Of a DNA stretch of 64,000 nucleotides, positions 3,925 through 64,000 are shown piece by piece. Source of the stretch: Candidatus Magasanikiibacteriota bacterium (GTDB lineage Bacteria; Patescibacteriota; Patescibacteriia; Magasanikbacterales; UBA922). Location of the stretch: assembly GCA_018650645.1 (NCBI GenBank), contig JABIFP010000020.1, positions 8,385 through 72,384 on the forward strand. The letters run 5' to 3'. Each line of letters begins with the position of its first letter. Position 1 is the stretch's first letter. The notes under the pieces were generated by a model. It did not search any database. It was given only the letters and a program-made list of their open reading frames with translations, and was not told the origin of the DNA. The position numbers and the translations under genes were made by a program.

Positions 3925-5406
3925 TTACGCTAGCTTTTCCCACTCTTCTGCCCCCGCCACAAACTCACTCTTAATTTGCTCAAAGTATGCACTTGCACTT
4001 TCATAATCATTTTGCACTTTTCCATCTAAAATTGCTTCTTCAATAGCTTTTTTAATTTTTCCAATTGTTGGACCTGGCTTTAACCCACACTCTTCAATAA
4101 TTTCTTCTCCGCGTACAGGCGATTGGAATGCTCGGAGTTCATCTTTTTCTCTAATTTCTGCAATACGTTTTTCTAACTCATCATAATTTTTGAGTCGTTT
4201 TACTTTTTTCTTTTGATTCCCCGTTGTAATATCTGCGCGGCACAGTGTCAGTAAGTCATCCAAAGAATCACCTTGGTTTACAAACAGACGGCGAACAGCA
4301 CTATCTGTTACGCCATTATCCATTAATGCGATTGGCTGCAAATGCCATCGCACCAATTCACTTACAAAATGCGTATCATTTTTACTAAACCGAAGTTTAC
4401 GCATAATGTCTTTACACATTTTACGCCCTAAATGTTCATGCATATCAAACGTCCAACCTCTTCCCTCTGCAAACTTTTTTGTTGGTGGTTTTGCAATATC
4501 ATGCATAAGCCCCGCAAAACAAAGAAGTGCGTTTCCTCCCTGCTGTGCTATACCATCTACTACCGCAAAGGTGTGTGACAGATTATCTTTATGAGTGTAT
4601 CCAGCAACTTCTTCTACACCTGCTAGCTCTGTCACTTCTGGCAAACACTGATCCATGAGTTTTGCACCATGCATAAGCCATAGCCCAATTGACGGTACTT
4701 TTGCACCCATAAGCTTCATAAGTTCCTCCTGCACACGTTCTGCAGACACAATAGAAAGCCGTTCACGATTTTTATGCATTGAAAGCAGTACTGATTCTTC
4801 AATTGAAAAATCGAGCTGCGCTGCAAAGCGAGCCGCGCGAAGCATGCGCAGTGGATCGTCAAAAAATGTCTCATCCGGATCAAGCGGTGTAATAAGTTTT
4901 TTGTTTATAATTGCTTCCTTACCATTATACGGATCAACCACGTCACCTAGTGACCCATCTGGATGTACTTTCTGCGCCATTGCATTACACGTAAAATCTC
5001 TTCGTGAAAGATCTTGCTCGATTGTCGCAGGTTCTACTACAGGCTTCCGTGATTCACTTCTATACGATTCACTTCGGGCGCCTGCAAATTCCACTTCAAA
5101 AAGTACCTTTGTTTTTTCTCCTTCTGCCTCTTCTATATATACGTATCTTGCTGTATCGAAGTCTTCAAACTCGATGAGTCTTCCCTGCTCTTCTCCTTCA
5201 TACGCCAAATATGCCCTTGCAAATTCAAGTCCACTGCCGGCTACCACTACATCAATATCTTTCTTTTGATTTCTGCCCATAATGGCATCTCGAACAAATC
5301 CACCAACAACATACGCCTCAGTTTGCTGAGCGCTACTAATTTTTCCGATTGTGCTTAAAATATGTGCGTCATTCATAGTGCTGCGACTGTACACTAAAAT
5401 AGCCAA
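3925..5406 (-). CDS. cca: tRNA nucleotidyltransferase (CCA-adding) / poly(A) polymerase family protein with HD domain
   Basis: GGFVRD...DIDV nucleotidyltransferase head, an RRDFTCNAMA motif and a C-terminal HD (HDIAKP) domain. The true start may be the internal Met at about 5376, because the annotated 5' end overlaps uppP. Confidence 0.8.
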   Translation of the reverse strand: MAILVYSRSTMNDAHILSTIGKISSAQQTEAYVVGGFVRDAIMGRNQKKDIDVVVAGSGLEFARAYLAYEGEEQGRLIEFEDFDTARYVYIEEAEGEKTKVLFEVEFAGARSESYRSESRKPVVEPATIEQDLSRRDFTCNAMAQKVHPDGSLGDVVDPYNGKEAIINKKLITPLDPDETFFDDPLRMLRAARFAAQLDFSIEESVLLSMHKNRERLSIVSAERVQEELMKLMGAKVPSIGLWLMHGAKLMDQCLPEVTELAGVEEVAGYTHKDNLSHTFAVVDGIAQQGGNALLCFAGLMHDIAKPPTKKFAEGRGWTFDMHEHLGRKMCKDIMRKLRFSKNDTHFVSELVRWHLQPIALMDNGVTDSAVRRLFVNQGDSLDDLLTLCRADITTGNQKKKVKRLKNYDELEKRIAEIREKDELRAFQSPVRGEEIIEECGLKPGPTIGKIKKAIEEAILDGKVQNDYESASAYFEQIKSEFVAGAEEWEKLA

Positions 5407-9149: not shown

Positions 9150-9223
9150 GCGCGCCTAGCTCAGTTGGTTAGAGCATCTCGTTTACACCGAGAGGGTCAG
9201 GGGTTCGAATCCCTTGGCGCGCA
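9150..9223 (+). tRNA. tRNA-Val (anticodon TAC)
   Basis: Cloverleaf with GCGCGCC/GGCGCGC acceptor stem, a GCTCAGTTGGTTAGAGC D-arm, anticodon loop TTTACAC and GGTTCGAATCC T-arm. CCA is not encoded. Confidence 0.9.
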
Positions 9224-9259
9224 CGAATGAGACCATCGCTACCGCTCATTTATGACGCA

Positions 9260-9288
9260 AAACACAGCCACTCACGGCTGTGTTTTGG
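9260..9288 (+). terminator. intrinsic terminator after tRNA-Val
   Basis: A CACAGCC/GGCTGTG stem is followed by TTTTGG. Confidence 0.5.
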
Positions 9289-9319
9289 TTTGTACGGCCA
9301 CCTCCAGGTCCCAGCATAA

Positions 9320-27223: not shown

Positions 27224-30200
27224 TTATACAACAATATTCACAATTCTTCCTGGAATATATATCTGTTTCTTTGGCTCTTTCCCGTCAATAAAGCGTTGCA
27301 CATTCTCTTCTGCATGTGCAGCCTCAAATGCTTGCGCTTCTGTTGCATCAGCTGGCAACGTAATGGTTCCGCGCAATTTTCCGTTTACTTGTACAGCTAC
27401 GGTTAGCGTGTCTTCTACTAATTTTGATTCGTCATATGCTGGCCACTCTGCCAGTGTTGCAGACCCTTCTTTACCAAGCACTTCCCACAGCTCTTCTGCC
27501 ATATGCGGTGCATATGGTGCTAGGATACTTACAAATGTGGCAAAATCATCTTTTGCAATTTGCGTTTCTTTAGTAAATGCATTTGCACATTCCATCATTG
27601 CTGCAATTGCTGTGTTAAATTGCAACTCGGCAGTATCCCCTGTTACCTTTTTAATTGTCTTATGCAGTATACGATTCATTTCTTCTGTACCCGTTTCGGC
27701 AAGCTTTTCTTGCAGCTTCCACACTTTTTCTAGAAATCTTCTTACTCCTTTTACTCCACCGGTGTTCCAGGCTTTTGCCTGATCTAGTGGCCCCATGAAC
27801 ATTTCATACATGCGGACAGTATCTGCTCCGTATTCATTCACCACATCTGTTGGGTTAATCACATTCCCCCACCGCTTACTCATTTTTCTCCCATCTTCAC
27901 CGGAAATAAGTCCCTGATGACGGTTTACTTTAAACGGCTCATCAAAATCGATAAGTCCTTCATCAAAAAGCACCTTTGTGAAGAATCGTGAATACAGGAG
28001 ATGTCCGTTTACATGTTCTTCACCACCCAAGTAGAAATCGATTGGCATCCATTTTTTGAGCTGTTCTTTTGAAGCAAACGCCTCATCATTTTTTGGATCT
28101 AAGTATCTGAAGAAGTACCAGCTAGAACACATAAACGTGTCGAGTGTATCTACCTCTCTCTTCCATCCTTTTCCGTATTTTTCTTCTACCCCATCTTGGA
28201 ATGATGGTGAGTAGTTGAGTGGTGATTGTCCTGTTGGTTTGAAGTCAACATCGTCTGGAAGGATGACTGGGAGGTCTTGTATTGTTAGTGGCCGAAGCCC
28301 AGAAATGAGCGCTTCATCAAGGATGACTTGTTCCTCATTACCATCAAAATGTGGTTTATTTGATTGCGCATAGACCAGCCGAGCATCCAAATCTGTTGCC
28401 ATTTTTTCTAAGTGTTCTTTTTTTATAATTGGGAATGCATTATCTCCAATTATTGTAATTTCAGAACACAACGCTTTTACTTTTTCTGTATCAAACTCCC
28501 ACGTTGTACTGTCTTCTACAACTGTTCTTTTTTTGTCATTGAATTCTGGAACATATACGGGATCCACAAAACACAGCTTTGCAATATTTTTTCCAGATTG
28601 TTCTAACATTCTGAGAGCCACTGCTGCACCGTGACTTTGAGAAACAATAACCGTATTCTCATCAAGTGTAACTTGCTCTAGTGCAAATGTAGCCTGTTCA
28701 TCTGCTTTTGGTTTTTCTGTATTTGGAAGGTCAAATGCCTTGACTATATGACCCTGCAATTCAAGTTCTTGTTTCAACCATGGCCAGAAAATAGCTTCTT
28801 TACCAGAACCGTATCCATGCAAACATACATACAACCTTTTTTTGTTTTTTTCTTCTTCATTTGAAATAACTGGAATTGGCGCACCCCAAAATCGTTGTCT
28901 TGAAACTGACCAATCGCGGAGTTTGTATTGTGTTTTCTTTTTACCAATGTTTTTTTCTTCAAGCCATTCGAACATTCTTGTTTTTGCTTCTTGTGTTGTT
29001 AGATCATTGAGGAATTCCGAGTTTACGACAACACCTTCCCCACTATATGTGCTTGCTTCCACAAACATATTCCATGCAAGAGCGTGTGGATCCCAATTAA
29101 TATCTGTCGCAACCTTTTTCTTATCTTGCCAATACATTTCATGCCTGCCCTCATCAACTTCACATGAGACACGCTCCTCATCTGTCAGCTGTACATGAAA
29201 CCAAACAGAACCTGTTATTTGGTTCTTATTCTTAGTAATGCGATATCCCTGAGCATTAAAATGTTCAATAAATCGGGACCTAATGACATAATTCACATAT
29301 CCACTTTCCTCTTTTATTTCTTTTGTAAGAGCTTCTTCAATACTTTCACCTTCTTCTACACCCCCACCAACAAAATGTACACCGTCGACATCTCTCAAAA
29401 GTAGAAATTTTCCACCATCAGAATTTTCAATGATTACATCTATACATCTACGATTAAGTGTCTCGACTCCATCTTTCATCGCTTTCTTTCCTGTAAAAGC
29501 TACTGACGGAGCAACAACCTGTCTAATCTCCAACCCAAACTTCTTCGCAAACGCAAAGTCCCTCTCATCATGCGCCGGAACGGCCATGATTGCTCCGGTT
29601 CCGTATGTTGCAAGCACGTAATCAGCAATCCAAACGGGAACTTCTTCCCCATTAGCTGGATTTATCGCTTTTACTCCTTTTAGTTCTACTCCTGTTTTTT
29701 CTTGATCTACTTGTCTATCTAAATTCGATTTCTTTTCCGTTGCATGAACATATGCCTGCACTTCATCCCAATTTTTAATTGTTTCTTGCAAGCCCTGTAC
29801 CAAAGCATGTTCTGGCGCAAGTACCATATAGGTTGCTCCAAAAAGCGTATCTGGTCGTGTAGTAAATACGGTAATGTTTTCTTCAGTATCTTTCACGCTA
29901 AACTGCACCTCAGCTCCTTCGCTTCTTCCAATCCAATTTCTTTGCCGAGTAATTGTTTCCTGTGGCCAATCGACTTTATCAAGGTCGTCAATCAACCTAT
30001 CTGCGTAATCTGTTATTTTTAAATACCATTGCTCCATTTCTTTTTGCAAAACTGGAGTATCACAACGTTCACAAGCACCTTCTACAATTTGTGCATTCGC
30101 CAACACTGTTTTACAACTATCACACCAATTCACTGCCTGATTTTTTCTATACGCAAGTCCTCTTTTATACATCAAAAGGAAAAACCACTGTGTCCATTTA

Positions 30201-30601
30201 TAATAATCAGCATTATGTGATCCTACTTCTCTCTCCCAATCGACTGAAATACCGAGCTGCTTAATTTGACTGCGGAAGTTTTCAATTGCCTTATCTGTAT
30301 TAATCCGCGGATGCACATTTGTTTTAATCGCATAATTTTCTGCAGGGAGTCCAAAAGAATCCCACCCAATCGCTTGAAGTACCTTTTTTCCTGTCATTCT
30401 CTGATACCGCGCAAAAATATCACATGCGGTGTATACCTCTGCATGTCCAACATGAAGCCCACTCCCAGAAGGATACGGAAGTTGCGGCAGTATATACATC
30501 TTATTTTCTGACGTTGCGTCTACCGGTGTCTTATAGAGCTTCTGCTCTTCCCAACGTGCTTGCCACTTCTTTTCGATTTCCTTCGGATTATATTGACTCA
30601 T
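27224..30601 (-). CDS. leuS: leucyl-tRNA synthetase, 1125 aa, with two inserted extra domains (NUDIX and alpha/beta serine hydrolase)
   Basis: Full class-I LeuRS framework: HVGH, CP1 editing domain (TTRPDTLFGATY...AHDERDFAFAKKFGL), KMSKR and a C-terminal anticodon-binding region. About 330 extra residues make up two inserted modules. Confidence 0.9.
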   Translation of the reverse strand: MSQYNPKEIEKKWQARWEEQKLYKTPVDATSENKMYILPQLPYPSGSGLHVGHAEVYTACDIFARYQRMTGKKVLQAIGWDSFGLPAENYAIKTNVHPRINTDKAIENFRSQIKQLGISVDWEREVGSHNADYYKWTQWFFLLMYKRGLAYRKNQAVNWCDSCKTVLANAQIVEGACERCDTPVLQKEMEQWYLKITDYADRLIDDLDKVDWPQETITRQRNWIGRSEGAEVQFSVKDTEENITVFTTRPDTLFGATYMVLAPEHALVQGLQETIKNWDEVQAYVHATEKKSNLDRQVDQEKTGVELKGVKAINPANGEEVPVWIADYVLATYGTGAIMAVPAHDERDFAFAKKFGLEIRQVVAPSVAFTGKKAMKDGVETLNRRCIDVIIENSDGGKFLLLRDVDGVHFVGGGVEEGESIEEALTKEIKEESGYVNYVIRSRFIEHFNAQGYRITKNKNQITGSVWFHVQLTDEERVSCEVDEGRHEMYWQDKKKVATDINWDPHALAWNMFVEASTYSGEGVVVNSEFLNDLTTQEAKTRMFEWLEEKNIGKKKTQYKLRDWSVSRQRFWGAPIPVISNEEEKNKKRLYVCLHGYGSGKEAIFWPWLKQELELQGHIVKAFDLPNTEKPKADEQATFALEQVTLDENTVIVSQSHGAAVALRMLEQSGKNIAKLCFVDPVYVPEFNDKKRTVVEDSTTWEFDTEKVKALCSEITIIGDNAFPIIKKEHLEKMATDLDARLVYAQSNKPHFDGNEEQVILDEALISGLRPLTIQDLPVILPDDVDFKPTGQSPLNYSPSFQDGVEEKYGKGWKREVDTLDTFMCSSWYFFRYLDPKNDEAFASKEQLKKWMPIDFYLGGEEHVNGHLLYSRFFTKVLFDEGLIDFDEPFKVNRHQGLISGEDGRKMSKRWGNVINPTDVVNEYGADTVRMYEMFMGPLDQAKAWNTGGVKGVRRFLEKVWKLQEKLAETGTEEMNRILHKTIKKVTGDTAELQFNTAIAAMMECANAFTKETQIAKDDFATFVSILAPYAPHMAEELWEVLGKEGSATLAEWPAYDESKLVEDTLTVAVQVNGKLRGTITLPADATEAQAFEAAHAEENVQRFIDGKEPKKQIYIPGRIVNIVV
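28307..28849 (-). other. alpha/beta serine hydrolase (PF06821/YdeN/RBBP9-like) domain inserted in LeuRS (residues about 585-765)
   Basis: LYVCLHGYGSGKEAIFWPWLKQEL N-terminus typical of the Ser_hydrolase family, and a nucleophile elbow VSQSHGAA. Inserted after DWSVSRQRFWGAPIP and before the KMSKS half. Confidence 0.6.
29042..29479 (-). other. NUDIX hydrolase domain inserted in LeuRS (residues about 375-520)
   Basis: Nudix box GGGVEEGESIEEALTKEIKEESGY (Gx5Ex7[KR]ExxEExGY) located between the CP1 editing domain and the ...VVVNSEFLNDL segment. Confidence 0.7.
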
Positions 30602-58932: not shown

Positions 58933-58966
58933 AAAAGCACACCAGTTTCCTGGTGTGCTTTTATTT
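58933..58966. terminator. intrinsic terminator hairpin (AGCACACCAG tttc CTGGTGTGCT) with flanking A/T runs
   Basis: Perfect 10-bp stem. Part of the duplicated block next to tRNA-Thr. Confidence 0.6.
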
Positions 58967-58984
58967 GAGCCATCATCGGGAATT

Positions 58985-59131
58985 TCACGTCGGCTTTTCA
59001 GCCTCTCCAATGGGGCTTCCGCCCCCTATGGCGCTCAACTCTTCGGTTTCACTGTTACCCCCACAGCAAAAGTGGGAAACTATCGTTTCCCAAACCCTTC
59101 CCGCTTCAATCTCTTGCAGTAGAGCAAAATC
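58985..59131 (-). pseudogene. degenerate tRNA-Thr-like duplicate (pseudo-tRNA) sharing the terminal 19 nt of tRNA-Thr(GGT)
   Basis: The reverse complement retains GGCTG, CCCGATGATGGCTCA and GCGCCATA acceptor-like pieces, but the D and T stems are disrupted. It is flanked by the 54-bp duplicated block (58931-58984 and 59132-59184). Confidence 0.35.
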
Positions 59132-59167
59132 ATAAAAGCACACTTCTCGTGTGCCTTTATGATTTTG

Positions 59168-59240
59168 AGCCATCATCGGGAATTGAACCCGAGACCTCAG
59201 CCTTACCATGGCTGCGCTCTACCAACTGAGCTATGATGGC
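59168..59240 (-). tRNA. tRNA-Thr (anticodon GGT)
   Basis: Reverse complement GCCATCA-TA-GCTCAGTTGGTAGAGC-G-CAGCC-ATGGTAA-GGCTG-AGGTC-TCGGGTTCAATTCCCGA-TGATGGC-T forms a canonical cloverleaf. Confidence 0.85.
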
Positions 59241-61404: not shown

Positions 61405-63231
61405 CTACTTTGAGTCTATATACGTATTTTTAAGAGCATGCGGCCCAACAACATACAGCTCATTCATAGCACGAGTAAGCGCTACATAGAGCATATCCTT
61501 TACCGTCCGCTTTTTTTCCTCCCGCATTTCTTCCGAATACTCGCTCCCAAAGTTTGATAGTAGTTCATGCGTCACGCCAACCAAACATACCGCCTCAAAC
61601 TCCACACCCTGCGCCTCATGAATACTCATAATATGCACATGCTCGCCAGCATTTAGCAGGAGTTTATATATGTTCGCAATGTCCTCTGTAAGGGCTAATA
61701 CGCCGATTCTTCCGGTAGATTCATCAATAATTTGCTGCACCTTGCTGACCTGTGCAGCTACTTCCTCTAAAACAAATTCCTGTACAGGCACCCCTTCTCT
61801 CATCTGCTCTGGAATTGAAACCGTATACCCAGCGTCCTCAATATAGCGCATTATTGCTTTTGTATTTCGGTATACTTTTTGCAGTGCTACCACTCTATCT
61901 TCTTTCACGTCCTCTCTTGCCTCACTCCACTCCCGAATAGTTCCAATTTGTGTTTGCTGCGCCATATCACCGACATACATCACCGCATTATGTTCTGGAT
62001 CAAGCACCGATTTTGCCAAAGCGATCTGCTCTGGTAGGTAATTTTGAAACTCGTCAAAAATGAGCAACGAATATTTCATGGCGAATCGTCCCATCTTTTT
62101 TACTGCAGATCCATCTTTTTGTGTTTTATAATATTCTTGCATGATGGTTAACGCGCCTTCATGCTTTTTTTGTAATATAAGCAATACCGTAATATCAAAT
62201 CGATCTAATTGGTGGAGCTGCTCCTGATCTGTAAGTGCATCAAGTACCTCCTGACCAGCTGTTGCATACACTTGCCGCAGTGCTTCATATGGTTTTTTGT
62301 GCCACGCGAAATTGCGAATCTGCTTGAGTGCCTCTCGTTTTGCAAATTCAATGTTATCTTTTTGCACCTGCGATTTCCCTACTCTATATACAAGTTTGGA
62401 ATCAAGTTCCAGCACTCGCATTGCCCACTGTGCAAACGTCGTAATTTTCACTCCTTTAATCCCAAGTTCAGGAAGTAAATGCGAAAAGTACTCGCGGGTC
62501 CCCTCGTCTTGTACAAACACCAAAATTGACGTTGGTGGGAACTTATCAGACACATCCGGTGATTGGGTCAAATACGCTACTCTATGCAACGCTAGGGTCG
62601 TTTTTCCTGATCCAGCAGGACCCGAAATAACCAGAGGCCCCCTATGATTCGCCCTAATCACCTCGTCTTGTGCTTTTTCCATTTGCGCCACAATTTCTGG
62701 CAAGATGAAGCCTTTCTTCTGATTTGAAAAATATTCTTGATAAATAAGTTGCCTTCCCTCCTGCTCCGATTCCGAAGATAAGAAACGAATAGTAGCCTCC
62801 GTAATCATGTACTGATCCTTCTTCTGCAAATTTCCTGTACGCCTGTCCCCATTCGGTCGCTCATATGAAACTGATCCAGGCTTTTCAAATCGAATTGCTG
62901 ATGCCGGGGTAATCCAAGAATAGATATTATGATCTACAGATGAAAACTTTCCAAAATACATATTGTCATGTTCACCACTTCCAAAATCTACCTGGCAATG
63001 CATAAAATATGGTGACTCTATCATCACCTCTAATTCATTCTGCCGTGCCTTTCCATGTTCAAGTAATTTATGCTGAACAATTTTATTGTCTTCATTGAGT
63101 TTTGGAAGGTCTTCTGCCATCTGTATATTTTGTACAGATAGTTTGGTAAATCGATCAGTGATCGAATCTACCTTTTCTTGCAGGTGCTTTGCGGCCGCTG
63201 CAAACAGTGTGTCTTTTTGTGCTTGATTCAT
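61405..63231 (-). CDS. UvrD/Rep-family (HelD-like) superfamily-1 DNA helicase
   Basis: Walker A GPAGSGKTT, DEFQN motif II and a C-terminal VKGLEFEAVCLVG-type UvrD C-domain motif. Confidence 0.7.
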   Translation of the reverse strand: MNQAQKDTLFAAAAKHLQEKVDSITDRFTKLSVQNIQMAEDLPKLNEDNKIVQHKLLEHGKARQNELEVMIESPYFMHCQVDFGSGEHDNMYFGKFSSVDHNIYSWITPASAIRFEKPGSVSYERPNGDRRTGNLQKKDQYMITEATIRFLSSESEQEGRQLIYQEYFSNQKKGFILPEIVAQMEKAQDEVIRANHRGPLVISGPAGSGKTTLALHRVAYLTQSPDVSDKFPPTSILVFVQDEGTREYFSHLLPELGIKGVKITTFAQWAMRVLELDSKLVYRVGKSQVQKDNIEFAKREALKQIRNFAWHKKPYEALRQVYATAGQEVLDALTDQEQLHQLDRFDITVLLILQKKHEGALTIMQEYYKTQKDGSAVKKMGRFAMKYSLLIFDEFQNYLPEQIALAKSVLDPEHNAVMYVGDMAQQTQIGTIREWSEAREDVKEDRVVALQKVYRNTKAIMRYIEDAGYTVSIPEQMREGVPVQEFVLEEVAAQVSKVQQIIDESTGRIGVLALTEDIANIYKLLLNAGEHVHIMSIHEAQGVEFEAVCLVGVTHELLSNFGSEYSEEMREEKKRTVKDMLYVALTRAMNELYVVGPHALKNTYIDSK

Positions 63232-63245
63232 ACAAACGAGTTAAT

Positions 63246-63305
63246 AAAAAAAACTCCTGAATCATTGGTATGTGTAATAGATACACTCCACCTGTGATTC
63301 AGGAG
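63246..63305 (-). terminator. long-loop hairpin (CTCCTGAATCA ... TGATTCAGGAG) followed on the minus strand by T7, probably terminating the tRNA cluster
   Basis: An 11-bp perfect stem with a 30-nt loop, and a T-run on the minus strand toward helD. Confidence 0.4.
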
Positions 63306-63353
63306 TCTTGCATGACGCGCGCTGTGGAGAAAGCTAATTGTGGGCCGGGGAGG

Positions 63354-63517
63354 CGCTTCGCTATTCGAACGCGCGCTTGCAGCGCTTTGGGAAACTTTCC
63401 AGTTTCCCAACCTTCCACCGCATGTAAGGGGCGCTGCCCCTTACCATCCCGGGTTCGAATCTGATTCAATGGCTGCTATTCTATTCAACAACTGATGCAA
63501 ATTCATCTTTTTCTATT
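63354..63517 (-). pseudogene. degenerate tRNA-Tyr-like duplicate sharing the terminal 16 nt of tRNA-Tyr
   Basis: TTGTGGGCCGGGGAGG at 63338-63353 repeats 63518-63533. The internal ATTCGAAC T-loop remnant is retained, but the stems have decayed. It contains GGGAAAC...GTTTCCC and GTAAGGGGC...GCCCCTTAC hairpins. Confidence 0.35.
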
Positions 63518-63520
63518 TTG

Positions 63521-63602
63521 TGGGCCGGGGAGGATTCGAACCTCCGAAGGCTGAGCCAGTGGATTTACAGTCCACCCCATTTGACCGCTCTGGAACCGAC
63601 CC
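63521..63602 (-). tRNA. tRNA-Tyr (anticodon GTA), long variable arm
   Basis: Reverse complement GGGTCGG-TT-CCAGAGCGGTCAAATGG-G-GTGGA-CTGTAAA-TCCAC-TGGCTCAGCCTTCGG-AGG-TTCGAAT-CCTCC-CCGGCCC-A is very similar in architecture to E. coli tRNA-Tyr. Confidence 0.85.
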
Positions 63603-63632: not shown

Positions 63633-63708
63633 TGGAGCCATCTGCGAGATTCGAACTCGCGACCGACGGTTTACAAAACCGTTGCTCTACCAGCTGAGCT
63701 AAGATGGC
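63633..63708 (-). tRNA. tRNA-Thr (anticodon TGT), CCA encoded
   Basis: Reverse complement GCCATCT-TA-GCTCAGCTGGTAGAGC-A-ACGGT-TTTGTAA-ACCGT-CGGTC-GCGAGTTCGAATCTCGC-AGATGGC-T-CCA. Confidence 0.85.
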
Positions 63709-63720
63709 GTATTGGCGTAA

Positions 63721-64000
63721 TTACGCCAGTTCATCAATTCTTTGTTTGAAAGCAGGTAGCTTTGCATTATCGGGATTCACCATCCGTAGATTGGCAAATG
63801 TCTCTTCTGCGAGCTCCTTGCTGGACACCATTATAGCAAGATCTAAAAGATTGTCAAGATATTTTGTATTTTTAGGTTCAAGCTGAACTGCCTGGGTAGC
63901 AGCCTCTAAAGCAGAGTCGTTTTCCCCAGCTTCTTTAAGCAAATATGCCAATTTATCAAATCGCTGTGGAAGCATATCTGAAATCAGAACTGCTTGCTGC
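63721..64000 (-). CDS. TPR-repeat protein, C-terminal part; gene continues past the window end
   Basis: TPR-like helical repeats (AATQAVQLEPKNTKYLDNL...). The ORF is open at the window edge. Confidence 0.5.
   Translation of the reverse strand, partial: QQAVLISDMLPQRFDKLAYLLKEAGENDSALEAATQAVQLEPKNTKYLDNLLDLAIMVSSKELAEETFANLRMVNPDNAKLPAFKQRIDELA

Follow-up and report, generated by a model that had tools for sequence, protein, structure and literature searches.

A non-coding insertion resembling tRNA-linked repeats behind a Patescibacteria tRNA-Tyr gene

The tRNA-Tyr(GTA) gene described here is followed, within its own operon and on its own strand, by a lineage-specific, non-coding insertion that resembles the tRNA-linked repeats (TLRs) of Escherichia coli. 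The insertion exemplifies a process that has acted repeatedly on the ends of Patescibacteria tRNA genes. It lies in a 64-kb stretch of DNA (the window), whose helicase gene next to the insertion identifies the source as a metagenome-derived Candidatus Magasanikbacteria (Patescibacteria), a bacterium that is ultra-small and uncultured. The inserted cassette is made up of a 164-nt structured unit and a duplicate of the final 16 bases of tRNA-Tyr gene and trailer. With modest confidence, we lean towards reading 63338-63517 as a non-coding insertion cassette of the TLR type, gained through recombination at the tRNA end and probably transcribed as a trailer. tRNA genes are classic landing sites of large mobile elements. 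Small gene-free units that end in a tRNA-end copy are known solely from E. coli and its relatives; for the units of tRNA operons, neither a function nor an origin has been assigned in more than 40 years. The same layout now appears in a very distant, genome-reduced lineage, with gain as a block, recurrence and strain-polymorphic nuclease versions; if the link holds, it provides a testable origin for tRNA-linked repeats.

An insertion between tRNA-Tyr and its terminator

The tRNA-Tyr gene was called on the minus strand by ARAGORN and Infernal (63520/63521-63602; 53.5 bits). It stands in a tRNA-Thr(TGT)-tRNA-Tyr operon, with a promoter-like sequence upstream and a terminator hairpin just upstream of the start of the helicase gene at 63231. 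The features of the locus are, in order of transcription:

63830-63857, minus: sigma-70-type consensus promoter, TTGACA-16 nt-TG-TATAAT (12/12; a pattern match, putative in function)
63633-63708, minus: tRNA-Thr(TGT), first gene of the operon, with no end copy downstream (ARAGORN, Infernal)
63520-63602, minus: tRNA-Tyr(GTA), intact, CCA not encoded (...CCGGCCC-A then CAA)
63518-63533, minus: proximal copy of the 16-nt repeat
63462-63517, minus: A+T-rich left part of the insert, with three TGAAT-containing direct repeats (by eye) and without a terminator
63448-63461, minus: inverted T-loop-like piece (GATTCGAACC on the tRNA strand) and CCGGG
63424-63444, minus: hairpin 1, 9 bp with a 3-nt loop, GTAAGGGGC/GCCCCTTAC
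63387-63416, minus: GGAAGG linker, then hairpin 2, TTGGGAAAC/GTTTCCCAA (hairpin 63387-63410)
63373-63385, minus: hairpin 3, GCGCT-GCA-AGCGC
63354-63372, minus: right end of the insert; the T-loop-like GTTCGAAT in sense orientation (63363-63370) sits in a short arm that directly precedes the distal copy
63338-63353, minus: distal copy of the 16-nt repeat; the sequence downstream of it is homologous to the tRNA-Tyr trailer of a relative with an empty site
63246-63305, minus: long hairpin and the T8 after it, which form the original terminator of the operon and are conserved in the closest relative (L035)
61405-63231, minus: helicase gene

The preliminary description had read the 16-mer TTGTGGGCCGGGGAGG as an exact duplicate of the 3′ end of tRNA-Tyr and not as a generic repeat, and both parts of this claim are borne out. 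[quoted passage not shown] On the tRNA strand the repeat reads CCTCC-CCGGCCC-A-CAA and spans the 3′ strands of the T-stem and the acceptor stem, the discriminator and three trailer bases (13 nt of tRNA plus 3 nt). Among 244 loci it is confined to those of tRNA-Tyr, with two copies in the contigs of the same species that cover both sites, a single copy in the nearest relative and none in 234 others. The locus was recovered in nine independent assemblies of the same species (L001-L009), identical bar one mismatch in one contig, and is thus not an assembly artefact; the near-identity of these contigs leaves them uninformative for comparison. A chance or generic repeat, or an assembly error, has nothing but the short length of the repeat in its favour and is refuted by the expected count, the confinement to tRNA-Tyr and the nine assemblies, so that we give it practically no credence.

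Comparison with relatives places the boundaries of the inserted segment. The closest relative (L035; helicase 71% identical) carries a single copy of TTGTGGGCCGGGGAGG and a tRNA-Tyr identical to that of the window, and has the same gene order (RRF, Dtd, aminoacyl-tRNA synthetase, M16 peptidase, TIM, TPR protein, tRNA-Thr, tRNA-Tyr, helicase). Its trailer (TTAGTTACTCCACAAC...) matches the flank of the distal copy in the window at 81 of 105 positions, whereas its match to the flank of the proximal copy (53/117) is at noise level, and the same terminator follows in both. Since the sequence that follows the tRNA in the relative is the one that follows the distal copy in the window, the difference amounts to a clean insertion of 180 bp (63338-63517), made up of the 164 nt and one repeat, which begins directly after the trailer bases CAA. 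The order of tRNA-Thr, tRNA-Tyr and helicase is kept in four relatives in which the segment is absent (L035, L042/L043, L045 and L010; helicase identity to the window 71 to 52%), and in these 108-121 nt separate tRNA-Tyr from the helicase, compared with 288 nt in the window. The segment therefore entered the operon between the tRNA and its terminator, left the tRNA intact and a 16-nt direct repeat behind; a precise loss between 16-nt repeats in all four relatives would be a less probable alternative.

Interior of the insert and its ORF-less relatives

The interior of the insert holds no ORF, and neither ARAGORN nor Infernal, even at E≤10, finds a tRNA in it, as the preliminary description had anticipated. 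Rfam searches over the tRNA-Tyr and tRNA-Thr(GGT) loci, at gathering thresholds and at E≤10, returned the true tRNAs only, with no match to rtT, group I introns, tmRNA, ribozymes or riboswitches. The two hairpins that had been named beforehand (63424-63444 and 63387-63410) are real, and so is the T-loop remnant, ATTCGAAC at 63363-63370, one base off its implied position. A second T-loop-like piece, GGTTCGAATC at 63452-63461, is inverted, and the piece 63448-63461 resembles the antisense strand of tRNA-Thr(TGT) (z 4.0). Folding of the tRNA-Tyr trailer gave -110.9 kcal/mol (z -6.5 against shuffles; a second folding z score, listed beside it, is -9.3). The predicted fold is a four-way junction with GTTCGAAT in its third arm, closed where the CCGGG of 63448-63461 pairs with the CCCGG of the distal copy.

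The preliminary description had further taken the interior for a second, decayed tRNA-like segment. The T-loop-like motifs and the stable hairpins are indeed present; decay of a duplicated tRNA is not supported, as any similarity between the interior and its own tRNA falls short of significance (z 1.2) and the site is empty in four relatives. Slippage or unequal crossing-over could nevertheless be imagined to have duplicated tRNA-Tyr or its 3′ part locally in tandem, with the second copy decaying while gene conversion or selection for a processing signal kept the 16-nt end identical. Three resemblances seen by eye fit such a history: the T-loop-like GTTCGAAT 9 nt upstream of the distal copy, GGAAGGTT, which recalls the 5′ strand of the T-stem plus TT, and a GGGATGG that could pair at 6 of 7 positions with the acceptor 3′ strand. 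The tandem TLR arrays of E. coli also imply unequal crossing-over. However, a duplicate that arose after the split from relatives whose trailers remain about 77% alignable should itself still be recognisable, and the interior matches neither its own tRNA nor any tRNA model; in addition, the plan of the interior recurs behind a tRNA-Arg elsewhere and its core motif behind a tRNA-Thr, and no partly decayed end copies exist among 56 sampled tRNAs. We regard this duplication as improbable. The empty sites, the recurrence of the hairpin plan behind another tRNA and the lack of similarity to the tRNA-Tyr itself instead indicate that the segment arrived as a unit, an insertion cassette.

A tRNA pseudogene derived from such a tandem duplication would be expected to resemble its parent or to yield a cloverleaf, and neither the similarity score given above nor ARAGORN and Infernal bear this out. 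Two further candidates were considered and rejected. A retro-element primer-binding site made from the antisense tRNA end would require TGG at a place where the DNA reads TTG, and no reverse transcriptase is present. A MITE or insertion sequence with target-site duplication conflicts with repeat lengths that vary from 14 to 38 nt and with three inserts that have no termini in common (by eye).

A second locus of the same architecture lies 4 kb away, behind tRNA-Thr(GGT), in agreement with the preliminary description. Its end copies are 200 bp apart and its features are:

58933-59240, minus: whole locus
59167-59240, minus: tRNA-Thr(GGT)
59164-59184, minus: proximal copy of a 21-nt repeat
59134-59158, minus: first terminator
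59073-59092, 59047-59071, 59012-59025 and 58992-59003, minus: hairpins of the 179-nt insert
58964-58984, minus: distal copy of the 21-nt repeat, identical to 59164-59184
58933-58962, minus: second terminator copy, diverged

The interiors of the two inserts are related (alignment z 8.7): both contain GGAAGG(G)TT(T)GGGAAAC-loop-GTTTCCC, a hairpin motif that was found in none of 100 shuffles. A third insert was found on another Patescibacteria contig (L039), where tRNA-Arg(CCG) is followed by a 14-nt end copy, and the copy starts 166 nt past the end of the tRNA both there and at the tRNA-Tyr of the window. The GGAAGG linker and hairpin 2 motif is common to all three inserts, whose sizes are 164, 166 and 179 nt, and at the Thr(GGT) and Arg loci the insert is separated from the tRNA by a terminator.

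The cores of the Tyr and Arg inserts have three hairpins at the same spacing: one of 9 bp with a 3-nt loop, a GGAA(A)GG linker, one of 9-10 bp with a 6-nt loop and one of 5 bp. The 23 base pairs divide into 13 that are identical and 10 with both sides changed, none being broken, in an alignment of two sequences that was made by hand, fitted to the structure and hence leans towards it; hairpin 1, of the same size and position in both, has 5 of its 9 pairs changed on both sides in this alignment. The hand-made alignment was used because the automatic ones from MAFFT and RNAalifold were misregistered. By sequence alone the two interiors are weakly similar (z 1.9). The Arg insert also contains GTCTACG-CCAGG ... 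CCTGG-CGAGGAC, a 12-bp mimic of the acceptor stem and T-stem that closes the three hairpins, and in it an inverted copy of the tRNA 3′ end (15/15 bases) pairs with the distal copy.

Searches of 1.46 Mb of related loci, by blastn with the three inserts, gave no additional ORF-less members, and a descriptor search of the related loci for GGAA-GG-TT followed by a hairpin gave no more either; with three members in all, structural conservation rests on two or three sequences. The small inserts had no matches in phage and plasmid collections, and a motif scan of viral contigs was set aside, the matches being mostly due to chance or to an unrelated hairpin motif in A+T-rich viral contigs. The Tyr, Thr(GGT) and Arg(CCG) units thus form a recurrent family, each of whose members ends in a perfect copy of the 3′ end of its own host tRNA.

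End copies among Patescibacteria tRNAs and coding versions of the layout

The last 14 bases of each of 56 Patescibacteria tRNAs from non-redundant related loci were sought at 20-520 nt downstream of the gene. Five of the 56 have a perfect copy (14/14), 160-330 nt downstream, consistent with the earlier suggestion of a recurrent process acting on tRNA 3′ ends; the rest reach at most 10/14, and 111 control comparisons at most 11/14. End copies in this sample are therefore all or none, perfect or absent, with no decayed intermediates. Repeat lengths across the cases are 14, 16, 18, 21 and 37-38 nt.

Two of the five inserts with a perfect end copy encode a small GIY-YIG nuclease, and one of these is polymorphic between strains. 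Behind tRNA-Glu(TTC) at two loci (L055 and L063), an insert of about 307 nt encodes an 83-aa GIY-YIG nuclease (E 1.4e-16), and the ORF is followed by two short hairpins and then by a copy of the 3′ part of the tRNA, 18 or 37 nt long. L069 is an empty allele of the filled L055, with 300 of 300 upstream positions identical, so that the layout of an insert plus a partial duplicate of the target end, together with an empty allele, is present both here and at the tRNA-Tyr locus of the window. Homologues of the nuclease (64-78% identity) occur in Patescibacteria and Bacteroidota; Marivirga salinae has three tandem 384-bp units after tRNA-Glu, each composed of a terminator, the ORF, a double hairpin and 18 nt of tRNA end. 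A mirror form is present at L123 and L124, in the order of tRNA 5′ half, double hairpin at anticodon-loop position 35/36, ORF and complete tRNA. The coding cassettes bring a replacement stretch of the tRNA with them. Coding of the homing nuclease is confined to the tRNA-Glu layouts (L055, L063 and L122-L124), and tblastn of the GIY-YIG protein against the window gave no match and no GIY-YIG remnant in its inserts. Coding versions with the same layout as the inserts of the window therefore exist: tRNA, GIY-YIG insert, short hairpins and partial tRNA copy.

Known systems and the route of gain

The closest parallels are the TLRs of E. coli, which include rtT/RttR behind tyrT-tyrV and RrA, RrB and RrF behind 5S rRNA (Egan and Landy 1978 and Rudd 1999, as cited in PMC8144298). 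[quoted passage not shown] The units of tRNA operons have no known function; the three 5S rRNA TLRs lie between two terminators and yield processed small RNAs (PMC8144298). The Tyr unit likewise follows its tRNA directly, shares its strand and operon, and closes with an exact end copy; the copies measure 16, 21 and 14 nt at the three loci described here against 18-19 bp in E. coli. Unit sizes are similar (178 bp behind E. coli tyrT, as 159 nt plus 19 nt; 180 and 200 bp in the window), and the position of the E. coli rRNA cases between two terminators is that of the Thr and Arg inserts. In the fold of the E. coli tyrT unit the end copy pairs with an internal GGGGAAGGAT segment and encloses three hairpins. 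One stretch of the window insert (CATGCGG-GGAAGG-TG-GAA-CT) matches an E. coli TLR at 20 of 24 positions (z 3.8; 2 of 300 shuffles), a value uncorrected for 13 comparisons. For transcription and processing the likeness is a predicted one, drawn from the layout of promoter and terminator and from the modelled fold.

The two groups also differ. The host phylum is another one, units are single in the window and in tandem arrays in E. coli, and the repeat here is without CCA because these tRNA genes do not encode it (a CCA-adding enzyme gene is present in the window at 3925-5406). The insertion is shown here by the empty site of relatives; to our knowledge there is no such demonstration for TLRs. 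As there is no Rfam rtT match even at E≤10, we file the window unit as working like a TLR and not as a demonstrated homologue.

A second parallel is the homing cassette. Mitochondrial GIY-YIG ORFs carry a replacement 3′ end for the gene that they invade, as in Allomyces atp6. T4 SegB, encoded in the tRNA cluster of the phage, is a GIY-YIG homing nuclease that recognises the DNA of a tRNA T-stem-loop (PMC2330249). Points of likeness are the tRNA gene as target, junctions in the T-loop or anticodon loop, an invaded gene kept intact by the replacement end that comes with the cassette, a displaced end left as a partial duplicate, the existence of filled and empty alleles, and the occurrence of GIY-YIG cassettes of exactly the same layout in relatives. 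The window inserts differ in having neither an ORF nor a detectable nuclease remnant, and their likeness to the GIY-YIG cassettes is one of layout.

Direct repeats of a tRNA 3′ end with an empty site in relatives are also the classic signature of a tRNA-targeting integrase, and the insert could be the scar or miniature of an integrase element. The 16-nt copies would then be attL and attR cores at the T-loop-to-3′-end part of tRNA-Tyr, and the 164 nt the remaining arms of attP size, left by internal deletion or forming a non-autonomous mini-element served by an integrase in trans. Interior plus core, at 180-200 bp, come close to the size of a lambda-type attP, and the three TGAAT-containing direct repeats in the A+T-rich left part could be arm-type sites (by eye). 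In a strain variant of the same species (L245/L247), the 3′ end of tRNA-Val is occupied by an element with an HTH_17 protein and a tyrosine integrase, which is absent from the tRNA-Val of the window; integrase-driven recombination at tRNA ends is therefore active in the population. This element brings its own terminator beside the tRNA, as in the Thr and Arg inserts, so that the likeness to integrative elements extends to direct repeats, an intact tRNA, empty sites and an element-borne terminator.

The small inserts depart from this pattern in several respects. The 164-nt interior contains no integrase or other gene, and a Pfam scan of the 60 ORFs of the window, all housekeeping-like, revealed no integrase, transposase or free-standing homing nuclease. 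Three independent inserts of near-equal size with hairpins in common do not look like random deletion end points. The arm shared by the tRNA-Val element and its relatives at tRNA-Glu, consisting of the terminator AACACAGCC...GGCTGTGTTTTG (also given as TTGCTTAACACAGCC...GGCTGTGTTTTGC), then TCGGCCCA twice and AAAATTTTCA, is missing from the small inserts; for the integrase elements themselves, no convincing distal copy was seen within 10 kb. We know of no described class of attP-only mini-elements. An origin from an integrase element appears unlikely, but it is the main rival of the preferred reading.

Group I introns are known in tRNA genes of Patescibacteria (bioRxiv 10.1101/2025.07.03.662931). 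They resemble the insert as structured RNA insertions tied to tRNA genes in the same phylum, and position 35/36 is also the site of the double hairpin of the tRNA-Glu GIY-YIG cassette. The insert differs from them in following a complete tRNA instead of lying inside one, in its lack of an Rfam match and in its short length of 164 nt.

Under the preferred reading of a TLR-type cassette, we infer that the gain took place by recombination in which the conserved T-arm and 3′ end of the tRNA served as the common sequence. Gene conversion following a break is one possible route, on the model of free-standing homing-endonuclease cassettes, which bring along a replacement for the end of their target gene; the other is one-sided homologous recombination with incoming DNA. 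The resident tRNA 3′ end would in either case have become the distal repeat. Searches for an enzyme that mobilises the ORF-less inserts found none. On the minus strand there is no terminator-like site before the hairpin and T8 at 63305-63246, and as no terminator separates tRNA-Tyr from the insert, the latter is presumably transcribed as the 3′ trailer of the operon. The trailer may adopt the predicted four-way junction closed through the distal copy, and by analogy with E. coli rtT and RrB it would probably be cut at that copy by the tRNA 3′-end machinery, giving an RNA of about 180 nt. For the cell, such an RNA is by default read as a selfish or neutral passenger. The terminators inside the Thr and Arg cases mean that co-transcription there needs read-through, which weakens a general role at the RNA level.

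A wider and more speculative reading, which we hold as a tentative possibility only, would make TLRs a cross-phylum class of mobile cassettes, not an enterobacterial peculiarity; they would enter tRNA genes at the T-loop, the anticodon loop or the 3′ end and bring a replacement gene end. Its autonomous members would be the GIY-YIG cassettes at tRNA-Glu in Patescibacteria and Bacteroidota, and its non-coding members three-hairpin riders whose RNA mimics the acceptor/T-arm minihelix and is excised by tRNA processing. If true, it would account for how the E. coli TLRs arose, a question that dates from 1978.

End copies and pseudo-halves can mislead tRNA annotation as well as att-site and genomic-island prediction in metagenome-assembled genomes. 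Partial copies of the tRNA 5′ end were likewise observed upstream of the gene, at tRNA-Ser (L012), tRNA-Leu (L075) and tRNA-Glu (L055 and L069).

Units and cassettes at other tRNA genes

Repeat units linked to tRNA-Tyr are also present in Escherichia coli K-12, and every tyrT repeat unit contains both AAGGTTCGA, the 5' part of the T-arm, and GGGGAAGGAT, which is complementary to the end copy.

L121:850-1830, E. coli K-12 tyrT-tyrV-rttR

The E. coli unit looks as though a hairpin-rich insertion of about 70 nt had split a T-arm, which is also the plan inferred for the Patescibacteria inserts.

At tRNA-Glu(TTC), Patescibacteria and Bacteroidota carry cassettes formed by a small GIY-YIG nuclease gene (about 83 aa).

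L055:4600-5110, GIY-YIG cassette, filled allele
L069:3700-4200, cassette site, empty allele
L063:2300-2805, GIY-YIG cassette locus
L122:1190-2700, GIY-YIG cassette locus
L123:1270-1900, GIY-YIG cassette locus
L124:1070-1830, GIY-YIG cassette locus

The cassette is accompanied every time by a conserved double hairpin, TCASCC-loop-GGSTGA followed by CCASCC-loop-GGSTGG, which adjoins a partial tRNA copy whose break falls at position 35/36 of the anticodon loop or within the T-loop. Near-identical strains differ in the presence or absence of the cassette, and in Marivirga salinae it forms three tandem units of 384 bp each.

Some complete tRNA genes are preceded, at a distance of 45-115 nt, by a partial copy of the tRNA 5' end, with short structured inserts between copy and gene; these copies are the mirror of the 3'-end duplications.

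L012:3225-3345, upstream of tRNA-Ser-GCT, copy of 15 nt
L075:8260-8335, upstream of tRNA-Leu-GAG, copy of 21 nt
L055 and L069, upstream of tRNA-Glu, copy of 17 nt

Variation at tRNA genes of the window species

Several metagenome contigs of the same species break inside tRNA-Tyr or inside its insert, perhaps because the population is heterogeneous here or because other genomes share the sequence.

L003, L006, L007, contig start inside tRNA-Tyr
L008, L009, contig start inside the tRNA-Tyr insert

In a strain variant, the 3' end of tRNA-Val carries an element that encodes a tyrosine integrase of 381 aa together with an excisionase-like HTH_17 protein.

L245:1-2300 and L247:1-3150, integrase element, compared with window 9150-9300

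This element is absent from the window. The terminator AAAACACAGCCACTCACGGCTGTGTTTTGG in the window's tRNA-Val trailer strongly resembles the element's own arm, and may have been left behind by a previous integration.

Viral hairpin motif and leucyl-tRNA synthetase

An intergenic hairpin motif, GGAAGGGTTCGGGAAACC-loop-GGTTTCCYGR, is common to A+T-rich viral contigs, at least one of which is labelled a giant-virus MAG.

L167:8652; L169:3854; L180:46 and 12810; L194:1229; L242:12448, motif sites

Its close likeness to the motif of the window's Thr(GGT) insert may be a coincidence.

In the window's leucyl-tRNA synthetase, a NUDIX domain (residues 384-497) directly follows the editing domain, an uncommon arrangement.

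27224-30601 (-), leucyl-tRNA synthetase ORF, 1125 aa
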